This document shows positions 1 to 59,961 of a DNA stretch of 64,000 nucleotides, piece after piece. The position numbers and the translations under genes are program-made. The stretch comes from Escherichia coli (GTDB lineage: Bacteria > Pseudomonadota > Gammaproteobacteria > Enterobacterales > Enterobacteriaceae). The notes below the pieces were generated by a model. It had not been told where the DNA came from. It was given only the letters and a program-made list of their open reading frames with translations, and made no database searches. The stretch lies in NCBI RefSeq assembly GCF_024298765.1, contig NZ_CP101210.1. One strand, written 5' to 3'. Within the stretch, counting starts at the first letter, position 1. Each line of letters opens with the position of its first letter.

Positions 1-1713
1 GAGAAAGCGGTAGTGCGTTATGCCCGTGAACATAATCTCGGCAAGATTATTCTCGGTCGCCCGGCTTCGCGCCGCTGGTGGCGTCGGGAAACATTTGCTG
101 ACCGGCTGGCACGCATCGCCCCCGATCTCGATCAGGTGCTGGTCGCGCTTGATGAACCACCCGCCCGCACGATTAACAACGCGCCGGATAGCCGCTCTTT
201 TAAAGACAAGTGGCGGGTACAGATTCAGGGATGCGTGGTTGCCGCCGCGTTATGCGCCGTTATCACCTTAATTGCCATGCAGTGGCTGATGGCGTTTGAT
301 GCCGCCAACCTGGTGATGCTGTATCTACTTGGCGTGGTGGTGGTGGCGCTATTTTATGGACGCTGGCCTTCGGTGGTTGCTACCGTCATTAATGTGGTGA
401 GTTTCGATCTCTTTTTTATCGCCCCACGCGGCACGCTCGCCGTCTCTGATGTGCAATATCTGCTGACCTTCGCGGTGATGTTAACCGTCGGGCTGGTGAT
501 CGGGAACCTTACTGCTGGCGTGCGTTATCAGGCGCGGGTAGCCCGTTACCGCGAACAACGCACACGGCACTTATATGAAATGTCCAAAGCTCTGGCTGTG
601 GGCCGTAGTTCGCAGGATATCGCCGCCACCAGCGAACAGTTTATTGCCTCCACGTTTCATGCCCGTAGCCAGGTGTTGCTGCCTGATGACAACGGTAAAT
701 TGCAGCCGTTAACACATCCGCAAGGAATGACGCCGTGGGACGATGCCATCGCGCAGTGGAGTTTTGATAAAGGTCTGCCTGCGGGCGCGGGCACCGACAC
801 GTTACCCGGTGTACCGTACCAGATTTTGCCGCTAAAAAGCGGCGAGAAAACCTACGGACTGGTGGTGGTGGAACCGGGGAATCTGCGCCAGTTGATGATC
901 CCGGAACAGCAGCGCCTGCTGGAGACGTTTACGCTGTTAGTCGCCAATGCGCTTGAGCGGCTGACGCTGACCGCCAGCGAAGAACAGGCGCGGATGGCAA
1001 GCGAACGTGAACAGATCCGCAACGCTCTGCTGGCGGCGCTTTCGCATGATTTACGCACGCCGCTCACGGTGCTGTTCGGTCAGGCAGAAATCTTAACGCT
1101 CGATCTGGCAAGCGAAGGATCGCCCCACGCCCGCCAGGCCAGCGAGATTCGTCAGCATGTGCTGAACACGACCCGACTGGTGAATAATCTGCTCGATATG
1201 GCGCGAATTCAGTCCGGCGGCTTTAATTTGAAGAAAGAGTGGTTAACGCTGGAAGAAGTGGTCGGCAGCGCGCTGCAAATGCTGGAACCGGGTTTATCGT
1301 CGCCTATCAATCTTTCTCTGCCAGAACCGCTGACCTTAATCCACGTTGACGGGCCGCTCTTTGAACGGGTGCTGATTAATCTGCTGGAGAACGCGGTGAA
1401 ATACGCGGGTGCGCAGGCCGAAATTGGTATCGATGCCCACGTTGAGGGCGAGAAGCTACAACTGGATGTCTGGGATAACGGCCCCGGTCTTCCGCCAGGC
1501 CAGGAGCAGACGATATTTGATAAGTTTGCTCGCGGGAATAAAGAGTCGGCGGTACCGGGTGTAGGGCTTGGGCTGGCAATTTGTCGGGCGATTGTGGATG
1601 TACACGGCGGCACCATTACCGCGTTCAACCGACCGGAAGGTGGTGCCTGTTTTCGTGTTACACTTCCCCAGCAAACCGCTCCTGAACTTGAAGAATTTCA
1701 TGAGGATATGTGA
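1..1713 (+). CDS. kdpD: Sensor histidine kinase KdpD, C-terminal ~566 aa; 5' end lies upstream of the window
   Basis: Frame 1 is open from base 1; His-kinase H-box (SHDLRTPL) and ATPase motifs (DNGPG, GLGL) present; overlaps kdpE start by 4 bp. Confidence 0.95.
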   Translation, partial: EKAVVRYAREHNLGKIILGRPASRRWWRRETFADRLARIAPDLDQVLVALDEPPARTINNAPDSRSFKDKWRVQIQGCVVAAALCAVITLIAMQWLMAFDAANLVMLYLLGVVVVALFYGRWPSVVATVINVVSFDLFFIAPRGTLAVSDVQYLLTFAVMLTVGLVIGNLTAGVRYQARVARYREQRTRHLYEMSKALAVGRSSQDIAATSEQFIASTFHARSQVLLPDDNGKLQPLTHPQGMTPWDDAIAQWSFDKGLPAGAGTDTLPGVPYQILPLKSGEKTYGLVVVEPGNLRQLMIPEQQRLLETFTLLVANALERLTLTASEEQARMASEREQIRNALLAALSHDLRTPLTVLFGQAEILTLDLASEGSPHARQASEIRQHVLNTTRLVNNLLDMARIQSGGFNLKKEWLTLEEVVGSALQMLEPGLSSPINLSLPEPLTLIHVDGPLFERVLINLLENAVKYAGAQAEIGIDAHVEGEKLQLDVWDNGPGLPPGQEQTIFDKFARGNKESAVPGVGLGLAICRAIVDVHGGTITAFNRPEGGACFRVTLPQQTAPELEEFHEDM

Positions 1714-2387
1714 CAAACGTTCTGATTGTTGAAGATGAACAGGCTATTCGTCGCTTTCTGCGCACGGCGCTGGAAGGCGACGGTATGCGCGTCTTTGAGG
1801 CCGAAACGCTGCAACGCGGCTTGCTGGAAGCGGCTACCCGTAAGCCAGATTTGATTATTCTCGATCTCGGCCTGCCCGATGGTGATGGGATTGAGTTTAT
1901 CCGCGACCTGCGCCAGTGGAGCGCGGTGCCGGTGATTGTGCTTTCCGCACGTAGCGAAGAGAGCGACAAAATCGCCGCGCTGGATGCCGGAGCGGATGAT
2001 TATCTGAGTAAGCCGTTTGGCATTGGCGAATTGCAGGCCCGTCTGCGCGTCGCTTTACGTCGCCACTCCGCCACCGCCGCGCCCGATCCGCTGGTGAAAT
2101 TTTCCGATGTTACCGTCGATTTAGCAGCTCGTGTGATCCATCGGGGCGAGGAAGAGGTGCATCTCACCCCGATTGAGTTCCGCCTGCTGGCAGTGTTGCT
2201 TAATAATGCGGGAAAAGTGCTCACCCAGCGCCAGCTCCTTAACCAGGTGTGGGGGCCAAACGCGGTCGAACACAGTCATTATTTGCGTATTTATATGGGG
2301 CATCTGCGACAAAAACTGGAACAGGACCCGGCCCGGCCTCGCCATTTTATTACTGAAACCGGTATTGGGTATCGGTTTATGCTTTGA
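1710..2387 (+). CDS. kdpE: Response regulator KdpE (GTG start)
   Basis: 225-aa OmpR-family regulator with receiver domain (LIVEDE...DLGLPDGDG) and winged-helix C-terminus; translationally coupled to kdpD. Confidence 0.95.
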   Translation: MTNVLIVEDEQAIRRFLRTALEGDGMRVFEAETLQRGLLEAATRKPDLIILDLGLPDGDGIEFIRDLRQWSAVPVIVLSARSEESDKIAALDAGADDYLSKPFGIGELQARLRVALRRHSATAAPDPLVKFSDVTVDLAARVIHRGEEEVHLTPIEFRLLAVLLNNAGKVLTQRQLLNQVWGPNAVEHSHYLRIYMGHLRQKLEQDPARPRHFITETGIGYRFML

Positions 2388-2424
2388 ATATTAATTTTAA
2401 TACATCCTGCCTTTTATTAATTAA

Positions 2425-2451
2425 AGCCGTAATAATAAATACGGCTTTTTA
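2425..2451 (+). terminator. Rho-independent terminator after kdpE
   Basis: Hairpin agccgt...acggct followed by a T-run. Confidence 0.6.
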
Positions 2452-2620
2452 TCTTAAACAACACACAAAAATAACAATTCAATATTTTATATTACTGAGT
2501 AAAAAGCTCATCATTAAATAAATTAAGATTGATCATTTTTTATTGATCACCTTCACAGTTCAACCGTATTTCCTGGATAGAATACCTTCACCTTCATTCA
2601 CATCAGGAAAGGTAAATTAA

Positions 2621-2725
2621 ATGGAAAATAACAGCCGCACTATGCCCCATATAAGGCGGACAACTCATATTATGAAGTTTGCTCATCGCAATAGCTTCGA
2701 CTTTCACTTCTTCAATGCCCGTTAG
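2621..2725 (+). CDS. speFL: speF leader arrest peptide SpeFL (34 codons)
   Basis: Short ORF MENNSRTMPHIRRTTHIMKFAHRNSFDFHFFNAR about 260 bp upstream of the speF ATG; matches the ornithine-sensing leader peptide as I recall it; not in the ORF track because it is too short. Confidence 0.7.
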   Translation: MENNSRTMPHIRRTTHIMKFAHRNSFDFHFFNAR

Positions 2726-2982
2726 TCTACCGACTAAGGGCACTTCAGCGTACAGGTCTTCCTGACTCTCTGTATTACAGGCATATGCCTGTATTCCGCA
2801 GTGCTCATTCTCTGTTAACCCTTGTATTATCAGCCACCGGACTGATAAGGGTTTCTGCATTCTGAAAAAAGCAAACTTCTGATTAATTTATCAGCGGGGT
2901 AACTTTGCTTTTTTTCCGGCACGATCGATTTCTCATTCGAGAAATTGAGGACCTGCTATTACCCAAAATAAAGAGATGGAAA

Positions 2983-5181
2983 ATGTCAAAATTAAAAATT
3001 GCGGTTAGTGATTCTTGCCCGGACTGTTTTACCACGCAGCGAGAATGTATCTATATTAATGAAAACAGTAATATCGATGTGGCGGCAATAGTTTTATCGC
3101 TCAACGATGTTACACGCGGAAAACTCGATGAAATCGATGCCACGGGTTATGGCATCCCGGTATTTATTGCTACTGAAAATCAAGAACGTGTACCCGCAGA
3201 GTATTTGCCCCGTATTTCGGGTGTCTTTGAGAATTGCGAATCGCGACGAGAATTTTATGGTCGTCAGTTAGAAACCGCAGCCAGCCATTATGAAACGCAA
3301 CTGCGCCCGCCCTTCTTCCGCGCACTGGTCGATTATGTCAATCAGGGTAACAGCGCGTTTGATTGCCCCGGTCATCAGGGCGGCGAATTTTTCCGTCGCC
3401 ATCCCGCGGGGAATCAGTTTGTGGAATACTTTGGTGAGGCGCTGTTCCGTGCTGACTTGTGCAACGCCGACGTAGCGATGGGCGATCTGCTGATTCACGA
3501 AGGCGCGCCATGCATTGCACAGCAACATGCGGCAAAAGTGTTTAATGCCGATAAAACATACTTCGTTTTAAATGGCACTTCATCTTCTAACAAAGTGGTT
3601 TTAAACGCCCTGCTGACACCGGGTGATCTGGTGCTGTTTGACCGCAATAACCACAAATCTAACCACCACGGAGCGTTGCTACAGGCTGGCGCGACACCGG
3701 TTTATCTGGAAACCGCACGTAACCCGTATGGTTTTATCGGTGGTATTGACGCTCACTGTTTTGAAGAAAGTTACCTGCGTGAACTGATCGCGGAATTCGC
3801 ACCGCAGCGGGCAAAAGAGGCTCGTCCTTTCCGCCTCGCCGTTATTCAGCTAGGCACTTACGACGGTACGATTTATAACGCCCGTCAGGTGGTGGATAAA
3901 ATTGGTCATCTGTGTGACTACATCCTCTTTGACTCCGCATGGGTCGGCTATGAGCAGTTTATCCCGATGATGGCGGACTGTTCACCACTGTTGCTGGATC
4001 TTAATGAGAACGATCCGGGTATTCTGGTTACGCAATCTGTGCATAAACAGCAGGCTGGTTTTTCTCAGACTTCACAAATCCATAAAAAAGACAGCCATAT
4101 CAAAGGGCAACAGCGTTATGTACCGCACAAACGCATGAACAACGCCTTTATGATGCATGCCTCCACCAGCCCGTTCTATCCGCTGTTTGCCGCACTGGAT
4201 ATCAACGCCAAAATGCATGAAGGTGTCAGCGGTCGTAATATGTGGATGGATTGTGTGGTAAATGGCATTAATGCCCGCAAACTGATCCTCGATAACTGTC
4301 AGCATATTCGTCCATTCGTACCTGAACTGGTGGATGGTAAACCCTGGCAGTCGTATGAAACGGCGCAAATTGCGGTTGATCTGCGCTTCTTCCAGTTTGT
4401 ACCAGGTGAGCACTGGCATTCTTTTGAAGGCTATGCAGAGAATCAATACTTTGTCGATCCGTGCAAACTGTTGCTGACAACCCCAGGTATTGATGCACGT
4501 AACGGCGAATATGAAGCGTTCGGTGTACCCGCGACGATTCTTGCTAACTTCCTGCGCGAAAATGGCGTAGTGCCGGAAAAATGCGATCTTAACTCCATCC
4601 TCTTTCTGCTGACTCCGGCAGAAGATATGGCCAAACTTCAGCAACTTGTTGCTCTGCTGGTACGCTTCGAAAAACTGCTTGAGTCCGACGCGCCATTATC
4701 AGAAGTACTGCCTTCCATCTACAAACAGCATGAAGAGCGCTACACCGGTTATACCCTGCGTCAGTTGTGTCAGGAAATGCATGATTTGTATGCCCGTCAC
4801 AACGTGAAACAACTGCAAAAAGAGATGTTCCGTAAGGAACACTTCCCACGCGTAAGCATGAATCCACAAGAAGCCAACTACGCCTATTTACGCGGTGAAG
4901 TGGAGCTGGTTCGTCTGCCGGATGCAGAAGGCCGTATCGCTGCCGAAGGTGCGCTTCCTTATCCTCCGGGTGTGCTGTGTGTTGTTCCGGGTGAAATCTG
5001 GGGTGGTGCTGTTCTGCGTTACTTCAGCGCTCTGGAAGAAGGGATCAACCTGCTGCCAGGTTTTGCACCAGAGCTGCAGGGTGTCTATATCGAAGAACAT
5101 GATGGTCGTAAGCAAGTTTGGTGCTATGTCATCAAGCCTCGTGATGCGCAAAGCACCCTGTTGAAAGGGGAAAAATTATGA
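2983..5181 (+). CDS. speF: Inducible ornithine decarboxylase SpeF (732 aa)
   Basis: Large fold-type I PLP decarboxylase; start taken at MSKLKIAV with RBS aagaga upstream, not the extended ORF-track start at 2905. Confidence 0.95.
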   Translation: MSKLKIAVSDSCPDCFTTQRECIYINENSNIDVAAIVLSLNDVTRGKLDEIDATGYGIPVFIATENQERVPAEYLPRISGVFENCESRREFYGRQLETAASHYETQLRPPFFRALVDYVNQGNSAFDCPGHQGGEFFRRHPAGNQFVEYFGEALFRADLCNADVAMGDLLIHEGAPCIAQQHAAKVFNADKTYFVLNGTSSSNKVVLNALLTPGDLVLFDRNNHKSNHHGALLQAGATPVYLETARNPYGFIGGIDAHCFEESYLRELIAEFAPQRAKEARPFRLAVIQLGTYDGTIYNARQVVDKIGHLCDYILFDSAWVGYEQFIPMMADCSPLLLDLNENDPGILVTQSVHKQQAGFSQTSQIHKKDSHIKGQQRYVPHKRMNNAFMMHASTSPFYPLFAALDINAKMHEGVSGRNMWMDCVVNGINARKLILDNCQHIRPFVPELVDGKPWQSYETAQIAVDLRFFQFVPGEHWHSFEGYAENQYFVDPCKLLLTTPGIDARNGEYEAFGVPATILANFLRENGVVPEKCDLNSILFLLTPAEDMAKLQQLVALLVRFEKLLESDAPLSEVLPSIYKQHEERYTGYTLRQLCQEMHDLYARHNVKQLQKEMFRKEHFPRVSMNPQEANYAYLRGEVELVRLPDAEGRIAAEGALPYPPGVLCVVPGEIWGGAVLRYFSALEEGINLLPGFAPELQGVYIEEHDGRKQVWCYVIKPRDAQSTLLKGEKL

Positions 5182-7934: not shown

Positions 7935-8640
7935 ATAAATATCCTCCGGCATAGCCGGAGGTTTTTCAAATGCGCCTATAAGGCTCTCTTACCAGCCGCG
8001 CCCTAACAGGCGCACACGATCTGACATTTGCATCCAACTTCGTTACTTACGGCCCGTAAACGGGCTGCCCGGATAGGGAATCGATAACTGCTCTCCCATT
8101 TTATCCTCTTCAAGCTGGTGCTTTATGTAATCCTGTATCTTCGCCGTGTTCTTACCCACCGTATCGACGTAGTACCCTCTGCACCAGAACTCTCTGTTCC
8201 TGTATTTGAATTTCAAATCACCAAACTGCTCGTAAAGCATCAGACTGCTTTTCCCTTTCAGATATCCCATAAAGCCGGATACACTCATTTTGGGCGGGAT
8301 CTCCACAAGCATATGGATATGATCTGCACAGCATTCAGCTTCAAGAATCCGTACGCTTTTCCACTCACACAGCTTTCTCAAAATACTGCCTATTGCTCTA
8401 CGCTTCTCTCTGTAGAACACTTGTCTTCGGTATTTTGGCGCAAAAACTATGTGATATTTACAGTTCCATCGGGTGTGCGCTAAGCTCTTTTCGTTCCCCA
8501 TTGGGACCCCCTTTTGATTTCTTGTTTGACACTTGCAGTTGCCAGACCGCAAGGTGTTTTAACAAATCAAAAGGGGTTTTAATAACTGGCTCAAAGCTGA
8601 AAGCTTTCCGGAACCCCCAGCCTAGCTGGGGGTTTTCTGT
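7935..8640 (-). mobile_element. IS200-family insertion sequence (boundaries approximate)
   Basis: Contains a Y1 HUH transposase gene plus subterminal hairpins (cccccagc-cta-gctggggg at 8614..8632; cctccggcatagccggagg at 7943..7961); about 0.7 kb, as expected for IS200. Confidence 0.55.
8043..8501 (-). CDS. tnpA: IS200 transposase TnpA (152 aa)
   Basis: Near-identical to Salmonella IS200 TnpA as I recall it (MGNEKSLAHTRWNCKYHIVFAPKYRR...HIHML...CRGYYVDTVG); HUH motif and catalytic Tyr present. Confidence 0.85.
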   Translation of the reverse strand: MGNEKSLAHTRWNCKYHIVFAPKYRRQVFYREKRRAIGSILRKLCEWKSVRILEAECCADHIHMLVEIPPKMSVSGFMGYLKGKSSLMLYEQFGDLKFKYRNREFWCRGYYVDTVGKNTAKIQDYIKHQLEEDKMGEQLSIPYPGSPFTGRK

Positions 8641-27056: not shown

Positions 27057-27133
27057 GGCTACGTAGCTCAGTTGGTTAGAGCACATCACTCATAATGATG
27101 GGGTCACAGGTTCGAATCCCGTCGTAGCCACCA
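27057..27133 (+). tRNA. metT: tRNA-Met (elongator, anticodon CAT)
   Basis: 77-nt cloverleaf ggctacgtagctcagttggttagagc...cat..ggttcgaatcc...cca. Confidence 0.95.
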
Positions 27134-27142
27134 TCTTTTTTT

Positions 27143-27227
27143 GCGGGAGTGGCGAAATTGGTAGACGCACCAGATTTAGGTTCTGGCGCCGCAAGGTGTG
27201 CGAGTTCAAGTCTCGCCTCCCGCACCA
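27143..27227 (+). tRNA. leuW: tRNA-Leu (anticodon TAG, long variable arm)
   Basis: 85-nt type II tRNA gcgggagtggcgaaattggtagacgc...tttaggt... Confidence 0.9.
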
Positions 27228-27250
27228 TTCACCAGAAAGCGTTGTACGGA

Positions 27251-27325
27251 TGGGGTATCGCCAAGCGGTAAGGCACCGGTTTTTGATACCGGCATTCCCT
27301 GGTTCAAATCCAGGTACCCCAGCCA
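27251..27325 (+). tRNA. glnU: tRNA-Gln (anticodon TTG)
   Basis: 75 nt; anticodon loop ttttgat; T-loop ttcaaat differs by one base from the next copy. Confidence 0.9.
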
Positions 27326-27359
27326 TCTTCTTCGAGTAAGCGGTTCACCGCCCGGTTAT

Positions 27360-27434
27360 TGGGGTATCGCCAAGCGGTAAGGCACCGGTTTTTGATACCG
27401 GCATTCCCTGGTTCGAATCCAGGTACCCCAGCCA
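27360..27434 (+). tRNA. glnW: tRNA-Gln (anticodon TTG)
   Basis: 75 nt; near-identical to the previous copy, with T-loop ttcgaat. Confidence 0.9.
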
Positions 27435-27449
27435 TCGAAGAAACAATCT

Positions 27450-27526
27450 GGCTACGTAGCTCAGTTGGTTAGAGCACATCACTCATAATGATGGGGTCAC
27501 AGGTTCGAATCCCGTCGTAGCCACCA
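27450..27526 (+). tRNA. metU: tRNA-Met (elongator, anticodon CAT)
   Basis: 77 nt; identical to the first tRNA-Met. Confidence 0.95.
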
Positions 27527-27574
27527 AATTCTGAATGTGTCGAATATGTTCGGCAAATTCAAAAACCAATTTGT

Positions 27575-27649
27575 TGGGGTATCGCCAAGCGGTAAGGCAC
27601 CGGATTCTGATTCCGGCATTCCGAGGTTCGAATCCTCGTACCCCAGCCA
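27575..27649 (+). tRNA. glnV: tRNA-Gln (anticodon CTG)
   Basis: 75 nt; anticodon loop attctga. Confidence 0.9.
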
Positions 27650-27686
27650 CTTTATTCAAGACGCTTACATCGTAAGTGCACCCAGT

Positions 27687-27761
27687 TGGGGTATCGCCAA
27701 GCGGTAAGGCACCGGATTCTGATTCCGGCATTCCGAGGTTCGAATCCTCGTACCCCAGCCA
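27687..27761 (+). tRNA. glnX: tRNA-Gln (anticodon CTG)
   Basis: 75 nt; identical to the previous CTG copy. Confidence 0.9.
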
Positions 27762-33309: not shown

Positions 33310-34848
33310 ATGGCTTTTGCCTCATTAATTGAACGCCAGCGCATTCGCCTGCTGCTGGCGTTATTATTCGGTGCCTGCGGAACGCTGGCCTTCTCTCCTT
33401 ACGACGTCTGGCCTGCGGCGATTATTTCGCTGATGGGGCTTCAGGCGTTGACCTTTAACCGCCGTCCACTCCAGTCTGCCGCTATTGGCTTTTGCTGGGG
33501 ATTTGGCCTCTTTGGCAGCGGTATTAACTGGGTCTATGTCAGCATCGCGACCTTTGGCGGAATGCCTGGCCCGGTTAACATCTTCCTGGTGGTACTGCTG
33601 GCGGCGTATTTGTCGCTGTATACCGGACTGTTTGCTGGCGTGCTGTCGCGTCTGTGGCCGAAAACCACCTGGCTGCGCGTGGCGATTGCCGCCCCTGCTC
33701 TCTGGCAAGTGACCGAGTTTCTGCGCGGTTGGGTACTAACAGGCTTCCCGTGGTTACAGTTCGGCTATAGCCAGATTGATGGCCCGTTAAAAGGGCTGGC
33801 ACCGATAATGGGCGTGGAAGCCATTAACTTCCTGCTGATGATGGTTAGCGGCCTGCTGGCACTGGCGTTGGTCAAACGCAACTGGCGTCCGCTGGTGGTG
33901 GCCGTCGTGCTGTTTGCCCTTCCCTTCCCGCTGCGTTACATCCAGTGGTTTACCCCGCAACCGGAAAAAACTATTCAGGTTTCGATGGTTCAGGGCGATA
34001 TTCCGCAATCGCTGAAATGGGACGGAGACCAGCTACTTAATACGCTGAAGATATACTACAACGCAACGGCACCGCTGATGGGCAAATCATCGTTGATTAT
34101 CTGGCCGGAGTCGGCGATAACCGATCTGGAAATTAATCAGCAACCGTTCCTCAAAGCTCTGGACGGTGAGTTGCGCGATAAAGGGAGCTCGCTGGTCACC
34201 GGGATTGTCGACGCGCGTCTCAATAAACAGAACCGCTACGATACCTACAACACCATCATCACACTGGGTAAAGGCGCACCGTACAGCTATGAATCAGCCG
34301 ATCGCTATAACAAAAACCATCTGGTGCCGTTTGGCGAGTTTGTCCCACTGGAGTCGATACTGCGTCCGTTAGCACCGTTCTTTGATTTGCCGATGTCTTC
34401 ATTCAGCCGCGGACCATATATTCAGCCACCGCTGTCGTTGAATGGCATTCAACTTACTGCGGCCATTTGCTACGAAATCATTCTCGGCGAGCAAGTGCGC
34501 GATAACTTCCGCCCGGATACCGACTATCTGCTGACTATCTCCAACGATGCGTGGTTTGGTAAGTCTATTGGTCCATGGCAGCACTTCCAGATGGCGCGAA
34601 TGCGTGCGCTGGAGCTGGCGCGCCCACTGTTGCGCAGCACCAACAACGGCATTACGGCGGTGATTGGCCCGCAGGGTGAGATTCAGGCGATGATCCCGCA
34701 GTTCACCCGCGAGGTGTTAACCACTAACGTGACGCCGACTACCGGACTCACACCGTACGCACGTACCGGCAACTGGCCGCTGTGGGTGCTGACGGCACTG
34801 TTTGGTTTTGCAGCTGTGCTGATGAGTCTGCGAGCACGTAAACATTAA
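33310..34848 (+). CDS. lnt: Apolipoprotein N-acyltransferase
   Basis: 512 aa; polytopic N-terminal region plus C-terminal nitrilase-like domain. Confidence 0.95.
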
Positions 34849-34897
34849 TGTGCCTGATGTATCCGGCATGAACAAAACATACTTTCTCATTGAGTTG

Positions 34898-34925
34898 TGG
34901 GGCATGATTATCATGCCCTTTTTTC
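34898..34925 (+). terminator. Terminator after lnt
   Basis: Hairpin gggcatga-tta-tcatgccc followed by a T-run; abuts the stop of the convergent rhomboid gene. Confidence 0.6.
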
Positions 34926-36803
34926 TTACGGTTCAGGGATACAAGCCACATCGCCATATTGGGGATGCCGAATAATTGCCTGCGGATCAAGCGAGCGCGT
35001 CCTGTCCATTTGGATTAACCTGTTCTTCGCCATAACAAATATCTTTCTACCATCCGCTGAAAAACGAAGGTGATTAACGTAGCTGGCAGGATAAACGCCA
35101 ATAATCTGCCCGGCATTAATATTGAGCAGGATGACATAACCTTGCAGGCCATATGACACCAACGCTAAATATTGACCGTCCGGGCTAATACCCTCAACGG
35201 AATAAACGCTCCTGCTACACCATTGCGTCATAATGCTGGCTTGTTGATCCCCTACGCTTATACGTGAAATCCCCTGGCTATCGGCAAAAATAATCTCGCC
35301 ATTTTTTGGTCGGAATCCCATCGCAGAAACGATACCACGCGCATCACCTGTGGGAAAGTCTTCTTTCTGATGCGTGATGGTATTGATGCGTACAATGTCG
35401 CCTCTGACCATACCGGGTATCAACAATGTTTTTTCATCCGGGGAAAGTGCCATAACCCAGGCGCCTGGTTTACCGCTCGTCCCCGTCCCGTCGTATTTCT
35501 CCAGCGGGATATCCGTCACATGCTGATAAGTCACCAGATCAATGGCTGACACACTATTACTGGTGCGATTCATCACCCAGGCTTTTGTGCCATCACGCGA
35601 GAGGATAAGGCTGTCAGGATGGGCGCCGGTGGTAATCGACTGAATAATCTCCCCCGTCGCCACGTTAATGACCGATACTGCATTCGCTTCAAATGAAGTC
35701 GCATAAATCAACTTTTCATCCAGGCTTAATGCCAGCGATCTGACGCCCTGATCTTTACAGCCACCACAATGTTTGACTGACTTTTCTTTCGCTATGGGCG
35801 CTGTAAAGGTATGCAGGATTTTCTTTTGTCCGAGGTCGAAAACAACAATGCTGTTGGTGTTTTCAATTGCGGCATACAACGTATTACCATCCCGACTGAT
35901 CGCCATATCATGGATATCGGCAATCTCAGCGAGTAAATCACCACTGGCCTGCTCACGACTTACCGGAGCGGATAATGTTTCCCTGAGGGCGTTGCGCTCC
36001 TCCACTAACTGCTGCTTTTTTTGTCGTCGCTCTTGTTCAATCTCCTGCGGATAAAACGCTTCACGCAGGCTTTGCCTGACCTGTAAAACTGATTCATCAA
36101 TCTGCTGCTGCACAAACCAGATAGTCCCGGTCAGAAGAAGAGTGACCGCAACAATAATCCCGCCTTCCGTAACGAGCCGATTTTGCCCAACTAAACGCGC
36201 ACTCAGCCAACCCAACGCGCCCCCCGCAATCAGGCCGCCAATGTGGCAAGCGTTATCTATTCCTGCTTGCCGGGCACCATACAACAGTGTCAGCGCCACC
36301 ATACCCAACAGAGAAAATACTCGCCGCTGGTTTTTATGGTGTGTACCCGCACCTGAAGAAAGCTGTGTTGCTATCGCAGCGCCCGCTATTCCCATAATTG
36401 CCCCGGATGCCCCAACGCTGATGACTATCTGCTCACTTTCGTGTAACGCATAACAGGCGCTGATCAGCCCACCAAAGATGCCGGAGAATAACCAGATAAT
36501 CAGGAGTCGCCATTTCCCCAGAATACGTTCCACCGCTCCCCCCACCACCAGGAGTGCAAACATATTCATCAGCAAATGAGAAACACTGCTGTGCAGAAAG
36601 ACACTGCTCAATAAGCGCCAGGATTCACCCGACAACGTGAGAGAAGCAACGTTAGCACCGAGATGGATAAGTGCGGATTGATCGACTTCTTCATAACTCA
36701 TCCATTGTGCGAGGTAACAAAATATCCCAACACAGAGCGCAAAAAGGATAAGGGTTATTGCGGGTAATTGAACATTTAACGGCTTAACCGAAGATGCAGA
36801 CAT
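34926..36803 (-). CDS. Rhomboid-family intramembrane serine protease fused to a C-terminal seven-repeat beta-propeller (625 aa)
   Basis: N-terminal ~230 aa has the rhomboid hallmarks: WR motif in loop L1 (SWRLL), TM2 HxxxN plus GGAVE, catalytic Ser in GASGA, catalytic His in NACHIGGLIAGGA, and an extra seventh TM. A charged linker follows, then seven S-x-D-G... repeats resembling YVTN beta-propeller blades. Confidence 0.75.
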   Translation of the reverse strand: MSASSVKPLNVQLPAITLILFALCVGIFCYLAQWMSYEEVDQSALIHLGANVASLTLSGESWRLLSSVFLHSSVSHLLMNMFALLVVGGAVERILGKWRLLIIWLFSGIFGGLISACYALHESEQIVISVGASGAIMGIAGAAIATQLSSGAGTHHKNQRRVFSLLGMVALTLLYGARQAGIDNACHIGGLIAGGALGWLSARLVGQNRLVTEGGIIVAVTLLLTGTIWFVQQQIDESVLQVRQSLREAFYPQEIEQERRQKKQQLVEERNALRETLSAPVSREQASGDLLAEIADIHDMAISRDGNTLYAAIENTNSIVVFDLGQKKILHTFTAPIAKEKSVKHCGGCKDQGVRSLALSLDEKLIYATSFEANAVSVINVATGEIIQSITTGAHPDSLILSRDGTKAWVMNRTSNSVSAIDLVTYQHVTDIPLEKYDGTGTSGKPGAWVMALSPDEKTLLIPGMVRGDIVRINTITHQKEDFPTGDARGIVSAMGFRPKNGEIIFADSQGISRISVGDQQASIMTQWCSRSVYSVEGISPDGQYLALVSYGLQGYVILLNINAGQIIGVYPASYVNHLRFSADGRKIFVMAKNRLIQMDRTRSLDPQAIIRHPQYGDVACIPEP

Positions 36804-37257
36804 AAGGTGATTCTTCCTTGAAAAGACAGGTAAAAAGCATTTTTCCCGTGTGCAGTTATCATCCCGGCAAACGTCCCATGCCGAAAAGATAACCCTGTCC
36901 GAAATATGACTATTTCAGCCTAACATTACAATCGTAATTAATTCACCTATAAGTATTTTTTGGCATGTAAGTTGCTTTATTTACTGTGTAAGCAATGAAA
37001 TCAGCCGCGACGCAACCGGGTTGCACCACCACAAATCAGCGGTAGCACCAAAAAGGTGCGATTTAAGAATTTTGCTTCGGAATGGTGCGGCGCATCTCGC
37101 AAAAACAAACAATAAAACAGCAATATCTTTACATTTAGCCAAACTAAATGTTACCTAACAAGCACAACACTGCACAATAAAGTTGCAGATGATAACAACA
37201 CAAACACTCACAACGGGTATCCATGCGTTCTTAACGCAGAAGATAAAGGAGTTGGAT

Positions 37258-38166
37258 ATGCAATTACGTAAACCTGCCACAGCAATCCTGGCCCTGGCGC
37301 TTTCCGCAGGACTGGCACAGGCAGATGACGCCGCCCCGGCAGCAGGCAGTACGCTGGACAAAATCGCCAAAAACGGCGTGATTGTCGTCGGTCACCGTGA
37401 ATCTTCAGTACCTTTCTCTTATTACGACAATCAGCAAAAAGTGGTGGGCTACTCGCAGGATTACTCCAACGCCATTGTTGAAGCAGTGAAAAAGAAACTC
37501 AACAAACCAGACTTACAGGTGAAATTGATTCCGATCACCTCACAAAACCGTATTCCACTGCTGCAAAACGGCACTTTCGATTTTGAATGCGGTTCTACCA
37601 CCAACAATGCCGAACGCCAAAAACAGGCGGCTTTCTCTGACACTATTTTCGTGGTCGGTACGCGCCTGCTGACCAAAAAGGGCGGCGATATCAAAGATTT
37701 TGCCGACCTGAAAGGCAAAGCCGTAGTCGTCACTTCCGGCACCACCTCTGAAGTTTTGCTCAACAAACTGAATGAAGAGCAAAAAATGAATATGCGCATC
37801 ATCAGCGCCAAAGATCACGGTGACTCTTTCCGTACCCTGGAAAGCGGTCGTGCCGTTGCCTTTATGATGGATGATGCTCTGCTGGCCGGTGAACGTGCGA
37901 AAGCGAAGAAACCAGACAACTGGGAAATCGTCGGCAAGCCGCAGTCTCAGGAAGCCTATGGTTGCATGTTGCGTAAAGACGATCCGCAGTTCAAAAAGCT
38001 GATGGATGATACCATCGCTCAGGTGCAGACCTCCGGTGAAGCGGAAAAATGGTTTGATAAGTGGTTCAAAAATCCAATTCCGCCGAAAAACCTGAACATG
38101 AATTTCGAACTGTCAGACGAAATGAAAGCACTGTTCAAAGAACCGAATGACAAGGCACTGAACTAA
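37258..38166 (+). CDS. gltI: Glutamate/aspartate ABC transporter periplasmic binding protein (302 aa)
   Basis: Signal peptide MQLRKPATAILALALSAGLAQA; start placed at the internal ATG. Confidence 0.95.
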   Translation: MQLRKPATAILALALSAGLAQADDAAPAAGSTLDKIAKNGVIVVGHRESSVPFSYYDNQQKVVGYSQDYSNAIVEAVKKKLNKPDLQVKLIPITSQNRIPLLQNGTFDFECGSTTNNAERQKQAAFSDTIFVVGTRLLTKKGGDIKDFADLKGKAVVVTSGTTSEVLLNKLNEEQKMNMRIISAKDHGDSFRTLESGRAVAFMMDDALLAGERAKAKKPDNWEIVGKPQSQEAYGCMLRKDDPQFKKLMDDTIAQVQTSGEAEKWFDKWFKNPIPPKNLNMNFELSDEMKALFKEPNDKALN

Positions 38167-38323
38167 TTACAAGAACCAGGGGCGGAAATTCCAGCCCTCT
38201 CGATTGTTACGTAGCACGGACAGACTATACGCCTGGTGGTCGTTCCCCATCGGGCCTGAAAACCGCAATACGCTGGGTAACAATCTTCGAGGGTAGCAGT
38301 TAACGCTGCTACCCTCTTTTTTC
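38165..38323 (+). ncRNA. sroC: Probable SroC sRNA (gltI 3' UTR-derived); 5' end approximate
   Basis: gltI-gltJ intergenic region ending in a strong terminator (gagggtagcag-ttaacg-ctgctaccctc followed by TTTTTT); location matches the known SroC locus. Confidence 0.45.
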
Positions 38324-38335
38324 TGGAGTAGATTT

Positions 38336-59528: not shown

Positions 59529-59559
59529 CAAAAAAAACCCGCTGATTAAGCGGGTTTTG
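59529..59559. terminator. Bidirectional terminator between crcB and cspE
   Basis: Hairpin aacccgct-gatta-agcgggtt flanked by A and T runs. Confidence 0.7.
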
Positions 59560-59577
59560 AATTCTTGCTGACGTATC

Positions 59578-59787
59578 TTACAGAGCGATTACGTTTGCAG
59601 CAGAAGGGCCTTTGGCACCGTTAGTGATTTCGAACTCTACGCGCTGACCTTCAGCAAGAGTTTTAAAACCATTAGTCTGGATTGCAGAGAAGTGTACGAA
59701 CACGTCTTTGCTGCCGTCTTCCGGAGTAATGAAACCGAATCCTTTGGACTCATTAAACCACTTAACGTTACCTTTAATCTTAGACAT
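59578..59787 (-). CDS. cspE: Cold-shock-domain protein CspE (69 aa)
   Basis: [20 protein letters not shown]... with RNP motifs; ORF-track start is extended. Confidence 0.95.
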
Positions 59788-59961
59788 CAAAATTACCTTT
59801 ACATGAAAAATAGACACAAATGCTGTGTCGGTTACCAGTACACCAATTGTGGTACGCTTTGTCCAGTGCAACTTTACTAAAAAGTGATAAAAGTCGCGTT
59901 ATTTTTGATGTTAATTATTTTACTCATTGATTTTAAAGAGTTTACTAAAATTTCATTTGTC

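Follow-up and report, generated by a model that had tools for sequence, protein, structure and literature searches.

The window, which is the whole 64,000-nucleotide stretch of Escherichia coli DNA that was analysed (contig NZ_CP101210.1), contains a single gene between lnt and gltI whose product appears to join a membrane protease to a large extracytoplasmic domain. The locus raises the questions of what this protein is, whether it is new, and what the appended domain contributes. The gene, referred to as rhom7, is an ATG-initiated ORF on the minus strand; the preliminary description had placed a 625-residue ORF here, and all the motifs quoted in it are found in the order given. The same protein is deposited in an identical record as RefSeq WP_001276779.1, which PGAP names 'rhomboid family intramembrane serine protease'.

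34926..36803, minus strand: rhom7 coding sequence, 625 amino acids plus stop codon
34899..34919, plus strand: GC-rich hairpin with a T-run behind it, located between the stop codons of the convergent genes lnt and rhom7, terminator-like, 9 pairs

The gene stands alone at its site, as had been noticed from the sequence: it converges with lnt (33310-34848, plus strand) and diverges from gltI, which is annotated from an ATG at window position 37258. Judged by its pattern only, the hairpin is likely the lnt terminator. A sigma-70 promoter scan of the minus strand upstream of rhom7 returned no consensus site, which fits the low native expression reported for the Shigella protein described below but is no evidence by itself. 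The sole Rfam match at the locus is the known sroC sRNA, downstream of gltI. Inspection of Rfam matches and ORFs revealed nothing hidden within or next to rhom7, and two plus-strand ORFs inside it (93 and 103 amino acids) were dismissed as shadow ORFs.

The N-terminal part of the product displays the hallmarks of a rhomboid protease. The Pfam Rhomboid profile PF01694 covers residues 59-201 (model positions 2-140 of 143, E=6.4e-29), which bears out the proposed rhomboid assignment with its Ser/His dyad. GlpG chains match the product in sequence with E-values from 2.5e-11 to 1e-6, the GlpG structure 2nr9 at E=2.5e-11. The AlphaFold (AF2) model places the helices of the core at residues 15-34, 74-95, 97-122, 132-149, 152-178 and 184-203.

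36195..36761, minus strand: six-TM rhomboid catalytic core, residues 15-203 (PF01694, GlpG structure match, AF2 helices)
36405..36407, minus strand: codon of catalytic Ser133, within GASG on TM4 (motif position; S133A is inactive in the Shigella sonnei ortholog)
36243..36245, minus strand: codon of catalytic His187 on TM6, followed by G190xxxG194 (motif position; H187A is inactive in the S. sonnei ortholog)

Within this core, GGAVERILG begins at residue 88, GASGAIMG at 131, with Ser133 in model helix 132-149, and NACHIGGLIAGGA at 184, with His187 in model helix 184-203. The accessory motifs comprise W62-R63 in loop L1, H76xxxN80 in TM2 (HLLMN, residues 76-80) and G190xxxG194 in TM6. Residues W62, R63, H76, N80, G131, S133, H187, G190 and G194 do not vary among the 19 homologs compared, down to approximately 24% identity. 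On the combined evidence of profile, dyad and accessory motifs, the rhom7 product is a member of the rhomboid family (MEROPS S54 / PF01694).

The core is followed by a further hydrophobic helix and a charged linker that lead to the C-terminal domain.

36108..36179, minus strand: seventh TM helix, residues 209-232 (hydropathy peak 210-233; AF2 helix 209-232)
35940..36107, minus strand: charged, mostly helical linker, residues 233-288 (AF2 helices 237-250 and 253-276, pLDDT 64-76)

The preliminary description had suggested that an extra TM segment would put the C-terminal domain in the periplasm, and the model helix, the hydropathy peak and the loop charges all agree with it. The loops predicted to lie inside contain 9 K/R and 0 D/E, and those predicted outside 2 K/R and 6 D/E, a bias compatible with an N-in, C-out topology. 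Because of the topology of GlpG, the positive-inside rule and the conserved cysteine pairs described below, the N-terminus is presumably cytoplasmic and the linker and propeller periplasmic, with TM7 crossing from the cytoplasm to the periplasm. TM7 varies most among orthologs, with 21-28% identity versus 53-59% for the core. The linker, in which the charged motif EIEQERRQKKQQLVEERNALRE begins at residue 254 and about 40 residues form a helical stretch, is 47-58% identical among enterobacterial orthologs and has a dN/dS of 0.05-0.15 within E. coli.

The C-terminal domain is predicted to fold as a beta-propeller.

34989..35939, minus strand: seven-bladed YVTN-type beta-propeller, residues 289-605 (TIGR02276, 1l0q, AF2 model, AFDB50 matches)
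35757..35768, minus strand: cysteine pair C346-G-G-C349, in the loop between blades 1 and 2 (homolog comparison)
34929..34988, minus strand: C-terminal tail, residues 606-625, with conserved Cys621 (homolog comparison)

The seven repeat motifs have their first residues at 303, 360, 402, 454, 498, 540 and 582, and at 52.8 bits the product clears the cutoff of 27.85 set for TIGR02276, the NCBIfam model of the YVTN repeat. The top PDB match to the propeller is the Methanosarcina S-layer protein 1l0q (sequence E=5e-23, Foldseek E=8e-18), and in AFDB50 it matches propellers of the YncE family and of the YVTN type. The AlphaFold model as a whole (mean pLDDT 80.5) consists of seven TM helices, a linker helix and a seven-blade propeller, in which about 27 strands group as seven blades of four with pLDDT mostly 80-96. 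The YVTN/YncE-like propeller read from the repeats is thus upheld by profile, model and structural match. A search of the propeller for ligand-binding signatures found none; its YVTN, YncE and lactonase repeat matches are generic and far below equivalog cutoffs. Four propeller cysteines are kept in homologs down to approximately 20% identity: C346 and C349 are each present in 17/19 homologs, spaced as CxxC in the enterobacterial ones and as CxxxxC in the distant ones, C529 in 17/19 and C621 in 18/19. C529 and C621 probably form a disulfide. The model has low pLDDT at residues 342-345, beside C346-C349.

The preliminary description did not recognise this fusion and treated it as potentially novel, a claim that does not stand. 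By sequence and position, rhom7 of E. coli is orthologous to the gene of Shigella sonnei Rhom7 (SSON_0610, Q3Z4D6) and is not a new gene, because both proteins have 625 residues, Ser133 and His187, share 91-93% identity, and are encoded between the same lnt and gltI neighbours. The window protein is 91% identical to the Rhom7 sequence machine-read from Figure EV1 of the published work, a value that includes losses in character recognition, and 92.9% identical to the NCBI protein of S. sonnei P0022; between the latter and the machine-read sequence, identity is 98%. In S. sonnei, too, the gene is flanked by gltI and lnt, and its orientation is that seen in the window. The two are the same gene in sister lineages, sharing the seven predicted TMs and the C-terminal domain as well; the window allele differs at approximately 7% of residues, spread across both domains. 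The motif, profile and locus findings for the window gene are far beyond chance.

The S. sonnei protein has been characterised biochemically. Rhom7 is an active protease that cleaves a TatA-TMD reporter (Liu et al. 2020, EMBO J 39:e102922; PMC7232013), and the S133A and H187A mutations each abolish its activity. When over-expressed from a plasmid, it cleaves HybA and FdnH only if these are orphaned from their respiratory complexes; the parts cleaved are proline-containing C-terminal membrane anchors, the cleavage obeys the proline rule common to GlpG substrates, and it licenses further degradation of both proteins (PMC7232013). At native levels of Rhom7 in S. sonnei, cleavage of HybA and FdnH is undetectable, and a glpG rhom7 double mutant has no growth or stress phenotype (PMC7232013); for these reasons, the two proteins stay candidate physiological substrates. 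Variants lacking TM7 or the C-terminal domain still cleave the artificial TatA substrate (PMC7232013). The word 'propeller' occurs 0 times in that article, where the C-terminal domain is never identified as a beta-propeller, and a literature search for rhomboids together with beta-propeller or YVTN returned nothing relevant. No experiments on an E. coli allele were found in the searched literature; intramembrane proteolysis by the window allele is predicted from the 93%-identical active ortholog. The discovery value of the locus is consequently small, since thousands of genomes annotate rhom7 and the S. sonnei ortholog has been characterised at the bench.

A comparison with known systems places the protein apart from each of its relatives. 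E. coli GlpG (PDB 2ic8 and others) shares the six-TM core, the WR and HxxxN motifs, the GxSG serine, the TM6 histidine and GxxxG. By contrast, GlpG comprises a cytoplasmic N-terminal domain and six TMs but lacks a periplasmic domain, whereas the rhom7 product adds TM7 and the propeller; its TM1 starts at residue 15, and it therefore has no GlpG-like N-terminal domain. Membership of the GlpG family was rejected (TIGR04239, 48.4 bits versus 250; NF008155, 43.1 versus 335), as was that of the rhombosortases (TIGR03902, 42.9 bits versus a cutoff of 84). Bacillus subtilis YqgP/GluP-type rhomboids and Providencia AarA have a similar 6+1 TM layout with an extracytoplasmic C-terminal domain. After the propeller fusions, the next-best database matches are rhomboid-TPR proteins, named 'rhomboid protease GluP' by JGI, with 35-43% identity in the core. 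The extracytoplasmic domain is a TPR in YqgP/GluP and a YVTN propeller in the rhom7 product; assignment to the YqgP/GluP type was rejected in that neither Pfam nor NCBIfam gave a TPR match and only the 6+1 TM layout is common. YqgP reportedly also carries an N-terminal cytosolic domain, which the rhom7 product lacks. AarA, which is 30% identical to Rhom7 (PMC7232013), has no large C-terminal domain in the alignment. The propeller itself shares the 40-residue YVTN repeat and seven-bladed fold with 1l0q and with E. coli YncE (3vgz); these proteins are soluble or lie at the surface, carry no protease and are 18-22% identical to the propeller. The rhomboid-propeller architecture also occurs elsewhere, in at least 40 clusters at 50% identity.

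Taken with the published work, these comparisons point to rhom7 as encoding a rhomboid intramembrane serine protease, the second one in the E. coli/Shigella lineage, with a periplasmic propeller whose role is most likely substrate-selecting or regulatory; we put the probability of this reading at roughly 0.85. The rhomboid core would cleave the membrane anchors of orphan HybA and FdnH by means of Ser133 and His187, and the propeller would face their folded ferredoxin-type ectodomains on the same side of the membrane. Because cleavage of the artificial substrate does not need the propeller, this domain would most likely select the substrate or regulate the protease, outside the catalytic machinery. 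The preliminary description had likewise proposed a substrate-docking or sensing module, which the propeller may be; the sole published test is the dispensability of the C-terminal domain for the artificial TatA substrate. A more specific version is put forward tentatively, namely that the propeller acts as an ectodomain receptor for ferredoxin-type domains, folded and exported by Tat, that belong to orphan respiratory subunits, or for a periplasmic signal, and presents the anchors to the active site or passes the cleaved ectodomain to periplasmic proteases, with the conserved cysteine pair (CxxC or CxxxxC) forming part of the site. If so, Rhom7 would be the first case of a bacterial rhomboid in which an extracytoplasmic domain for substrate recognition is defined. 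The role of a conserved seven-bladed periplasmic propeller on an intramembrane protease bears on how rhomboids choose their substrates.

A doubtful though serious alternative is that the active protease cleaves HybA and FdnH only as an artefact of over-expression, and that the propeller senses a periplasmic ligand or partner and gates the cleavage of other substrates, comparable to the control of B. subtilis YqgP by cytosolic divalent cations. The failure to detect HybA and FdnH cleavage at native levels of Rhom7 would be explained in this way, the C-terminal domain is unnecessary for catalysis, and the propeller is conserved as well as the core. In addition, the 6+1 TM scaffold of the nearest relatives lacking a propeller carries a TPR as its extracytoplasmic module, a sign that accessory domains may be exchangeable. 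Against this, the propeller has no recognisable ligand-binding signature, and cleavage of the orphan subunits follows the proline rule of GlpG substrates. The gene neighbours, scanned for a substrate or partner, give no hint either: enterobacterial orthologs share only the housekeeping lnt/gltI frame, and the three distant homologs compared have zero neighbour genes in common.

It is highly improbable that the propeller is the functional unit, as a YncE-like binding protein or enzyme, with the rhomboid serving mainly as a membrane anchor. Free-standing YVTN/YncE propellers are indeed common as periplasmic or surface proteins, and PGAP labels the fragment of an IS1-split rhom7 allele 'beta-propeller fold lactonase family protein'. 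Yet the catalytic Ser, His and Asn and the WR motif are invariant in 19/19 homologs, the S. sonnei ortholog is proteolytically active, and one TM helix would be enough for anchoring; the YncE equivalog model NF052280 was rejected at 35.8 bits versus a cutoff of 400, its match being limited to residues 365-411.

The preliminary description had suspected the gene of being strain-variable and missing from K-12. Both suspicions proved correct. rhom7 is present in 3232 of 5426 complete E. coli genomes (approximately 60%) and absent from 2194, and the gene is therefore dispensable; being so widespread, annotated by PGAP and studied in S. sonnei, it essentially corresponds to the widespread, already characterised gene that the preliminary description had named as the outcome contrary to its proposal. 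Carriers include NEBExpress (a B strain derivative), ATCC 8739, ATCC 25922 and O103 and O111 STEC. K-12, with IS5 between lnt and gltI, lacks it, as do the two O157:H7 records among those listed; some other negative strains have an empty lnt-gltI site with no IS5.

34843..37012, no strand assigned: presence/absence segment of 2170 bp, comprising the last lnt codons, rhom7 and 209 bp upstream of rhom7 (blastn against YJ3)

In a blastn comparison of the window with the empty-site strain YJ3, homology stops at 34842 and restarts at 37013, and about 154 bp of unrelated sequence replaces the segment in rhom7-negative strains. Orthologs occupy the same lnt/gltI position, in the same orientation, in Klebsiella aerogenes (48% identity) and another enterobacterium (52%), and this shared position across genera implies long vertical retention. 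A recent island or horizontal acquisition was rejected, since the position is kept across genera and the GC content of the CDS (0.494) is near that of the window (0.507). These observations argue for an old resident gene that has been lost repeatedly.

Between genera, propeller (50-58% identity) and core (53-59%) have diverged at equal rates. Within E. coli, four alleles, all intact ORFs of 625 codons, gave dN/dS values of 0.23-0.45 for the core and 0.20-0.25 for the propeller. This indicates purifying selection on both domains, with values of approximately 0.2-0.3 denoting moderate constraint only. That rhom7 is instead accessory, on its way to being lost and without an important role in the window strain, could draw on its absence from many genomes, the IS1-disrupted allele, the S. 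sonnei mutant with no phenotype, dN/dS of 0.2-0.45, relatively high for E. coli, and the missing promoter consensus, but is very unlikely given that all four alleles examined are intact, that the 90% identity cluster of the product holds 8814 sequences, most of those listed being full-length, that the position is kept in other genera, and that dN/dS is well under 1 in each domain.

K-12 does without a second rhomboid protease carried by most E. coli, so that a picture of rhomboid biology derived from K-12 does not cover the species completely. The rhom7 alleles of most genomes are only 94-97% identical to that of the window. Diversifying selection on the propeller was considered as a cause and rejected, as lnt of the same strain is similarly divergent (95-97% identity to most genomes) and dN/dS is 0.2-0.3.

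The rhom7 gene is an ATG-initiated open reading frame preceded by an AAGGA Shine-Dalgarno-like sequence, and is annotated by RefSeq in an identical record as WP_001276779.1, "rhomboid family intramembrane serine protease". It lies, as had been described, between lnt (convergent) and gltI (divergent). The features of the gene and its locus are as follows.

34926..36803, minus strand: rhom7 open reading frame, ATG start, 625 codons
33310-34848, plus strand: lnt, convergent with rhom7
34843-37012: segment present or absent with rhom7, from inside the last lnt codons to 209 bp upstream of rhom7
35757-35768, minus strand: Cys346/349, conserved pair in the propeller
35217-35219, minus strand: Cys529, conserved
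34941-34943, minus strand: Cys621, conserved

All motifs quoted in the preliminary description were found in the translated frame. These include the rhomboid signatures W62-R63, H76-L-L-M-N80 and GGAVERILG (from residue 88), the catalytic motifs G-A-S133-G and N-A-C-H187-I-G-G-L-I-A-G, a charged linker from residue 254, and seven repeats of the S/RxDG type that begin at residues 303, 360, 402, 454, 498, 540 and 582.

An HMM search assigned residues 59-201 to the Pfam Rhomboid family (PF01694; E=6.4e-29), and GlpG crystal-structure chains align to residues 13-204 (E=2.5e-11 to 1e-6). The C-terminal half matches the NCBIfam YVTN repeat model TIGR02276 with 52.8 bits (cutoff 27.85); searched by sequence against solved structures, it matches the archaeal YVTN propeller 1l0q best (E=5e-23). 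The AlphaFold2 model, built on a 19-sequence alignment with a mean pLDDT of 80.5, contains seven transmembrane helices (15-34, 74-95, 97-122, 132-149, 152-178, 184-203 and 209-232), a long helical linker (237-276), and about 27 strands in residues 289-600 that form seven four-stranded blades, mostly with pLDDT values of 80-96. A Foldseek search of the PDB ranked 1l0q first, while in AFDB50 the top matches were rhomboid-propeller fusions, followed by YncE-family and YVTN propellers. The earlier structural interpretation, namely a rhomboid fold in the N-terminal ~230 residues, an extra seventh helix (TM7) and a seven-bladed YVTN/YncE-like propeller, is correct. The model scores for GlpG, rhombosortase and YncE fall far under the curated cutoffs, and the product is therefore none of these three proteins.

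The fusion had been presented as unrecognised, but the gene is widespread and already known. Liu et al. (2020, EMBO J 39:e102922, PMC7232013) described Rhom7 (SSON_0610) as a "newly identified" second rhomboid of Shigella sonnei with seven predicted transmembrane domains and catalytic residues Ser133 and His187, numbered identically in the window protein; a 2025 review gives its entry as Q3Z4D6. The Rhom7 sequence in Fig EV1 of that paper has 625 residues and ends in ...YGNVACIPEP. The window protein shares 91% identity with a machine-read copy of this sequence, OCR losses notwithstanding, and the NCBI S. sonnei protein P0022 is 98% identical to this copy and 92.9% to the window protein. In S. 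sonnei, too, the gene is flanked by gltI and lnt and has the same orientation. The window gene is the same gene as S. sonnei rhom7.

The 90%-identity cluster of the product comprises 8814 sequences, contributed by E. coli, Shigella and E. fergusonii. Orthologs with 48-57% identity are likewise located between lnt and gltI in Klebsiella aerogenes and on a sequencing-run contig. This distribution implies that rhom7 has long occupied this position and was repeatedly lost. Beyond enterobacteria, the 150 top-ranked representative matches include at least 40 clusters (50% identity) with the rhomboid-TM7-propeller layout; Pseudoduganella, Cedecea, Paraburkholderia, Phytopseudomonas and Variovorax supply named examples. 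After these fusions, the closest relatives are rhomboids of the 6+1 TM type, which carry a C-terminal TPR domain instead.

GlpG-type rhomboids have a cytoplasmic N-terminus, so that seven helices would place the C-terminus of the product in the periplasm. The predicted inside loops contain nine K/R and no D/E residues, and the outside loops two K/R and six D/E, consistent with this topology. Cys346, Cys349, Cys529 and Cys621 are kept in 17-18 of the 19 homologs, even at ~20% identity, and fit periplasmic disulfides. The Cys346/349 pair, in a loop of low model confidence, is CxxC in enterobacteria and CxxxxC in distant homologs; the pair could staple this loop through a disulfide, or possibly form a metal site. 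The known Rhom7 substrates are Fe-S proteins.

Judged from its sequence, the window product displays a protease fold with a Ser/His dyad, and proteolytic activity has been demonstrated for the S. sonnei ortholog. Rhom7 cuts an MBP-TatA(TMD)-Trx reporter, on which the S133A and H187A mutants are inactive, and this cleavage is not abolished by deletion of the C-terminal domain (CTD) or of TM7 and CTD together. When expressed from a plasmid, Rhom7 cuts HybA, HybO and FdnH in their membrane anchors; full-length FdnH is cut only without its partner FdnI, and Pro259 is required. Cleavage is undetectable at native expression, which is too low, and a glpG rhom7 double mutant has no growth, respiration or oxidative-stress phenotype (all PMC7232013). 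The fold of the CTD was never identified in that paper, where the word "propeller" is absent, and a literature search combining rhomboid with beta-propeller or YVTN found no further relevant paper. The residual interest lies in the role of the propeller.

Comparison of four E. coli alleles gives an overall dN/dS of 0.19-0.30 (membrane part 0.23-0.45, linker 0.05-0.15, propeller 0.20-0.25). Between genera, the propeller is 50-58% identical, compared with 53-59% for the catalytic core and only 21-28% for TM7, which by this measure looks like a simple tether. The low dN/dS and the conservation equal to the core indicate that the propeller is a constrained, functional domain. Carried on a helical stalk, it would be located on the periplasmic side, as are the folded ectodomains of the C-terminally anchored known substrates, and would be dispensable for catalysis. 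Its role is most likely substrate selection or regulation. Alternatively, the propeller might be a sensor that gates the cleavage of other native substrates. The invariance of the catalytic residues, the intact alleles and dN/dS values well below 1 speak against a propeller of independent function for which the rhomboid is only an anchor, and equally against drift of rhom7 towards loss.

Of 5426 complete E. coli genomes, 3232 have at least 80% of the gene, always at the lnt/gltI locus. Among them are NEBExpress (a B strain derivative), ATCC 8739, ATCC 25922, and O103:H2 and O111:H8 strains. In K-12, rhom7 is missing and an IS5 copy lies between lnt and gltI, in agreement with the strain variability proposed earlier; in both O157:H7 records listed, among others, the site is empty and lacks IS5 as well. 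Identity of rhom7 DNA to most genomes is 94-97%, which is not special, because lnt of the window strain is similarly divergent (at least 99% identity in only 193 of 5424 genomes, 95-99% in the others). The whole lnt neighbourhood is of a minority sequence type, and over this 2.6-kb locus the window is 100% identical to a chicken isolate from China, strain 104.

In rhom7-negative strains, ~154 bp of unrelated sequence replaces the polymorphic segment; in K-12 and YJ3 (about 2650-2800 of the comparison loci) this filler holds a degenerate REP-like palindrome, CCGGATGCGGCATCAGTGCATTATCCGGATAAC. The K-12 IS5 lies outside the filler: it is inserted further right, in the gltI upstream region, ~120 bp ahead of the start codon, and rhom7-positive strains share this region too. 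The indel boundary falls in the last lnt codons (34837-34848), and Lnt ends in ...SLRARK(H/R) in 6/6 rhom7-positive and ...SLRQRRK in 2/2 rhom7-negative sequences examined; the C-terminal residues of this essential enzyme are therefore changed. Some B-type and chicken strains have an extra REP-like element, GCCTGATGCGCTACGCTTATCAGGCCTAC, in the lnt-rhom7 spacer, which probably explains ~50-bp length differences and two-piece matches of the locus. In one of these loci (NZ_CP178650.1, locus 576-3228), rhom7 is disrupted by IS1, and PGAP annotates the pieces as two pseudogenes, one for a "beta-propeller fold lactonase family protein" and one for a rhomboid. The 209-bp interval in front of rhom7 (36804-37012) is confined to rhom7-positive strains and has an AT-rich composition (GC about 0.40-0.43). 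A promoter scan of this interval found no consensus sigma-70 promoter on the minus strand, which fits the very low native expression in S. sonnei.

Rfam identified further features in the window; sroC is a known feature, and the other three are ordinary for this part of the chromosome.

38162-38324, plus strand: sroC sRNA, between gltI and gltJ (172.6 bits)
8511-8634, minus strand: STnc490, Hfq-binding sRNA
59530-59888, minus strand: cspA-type thermoregulator leader
27057-27758, plus strand: cluster of seven tRNA genes
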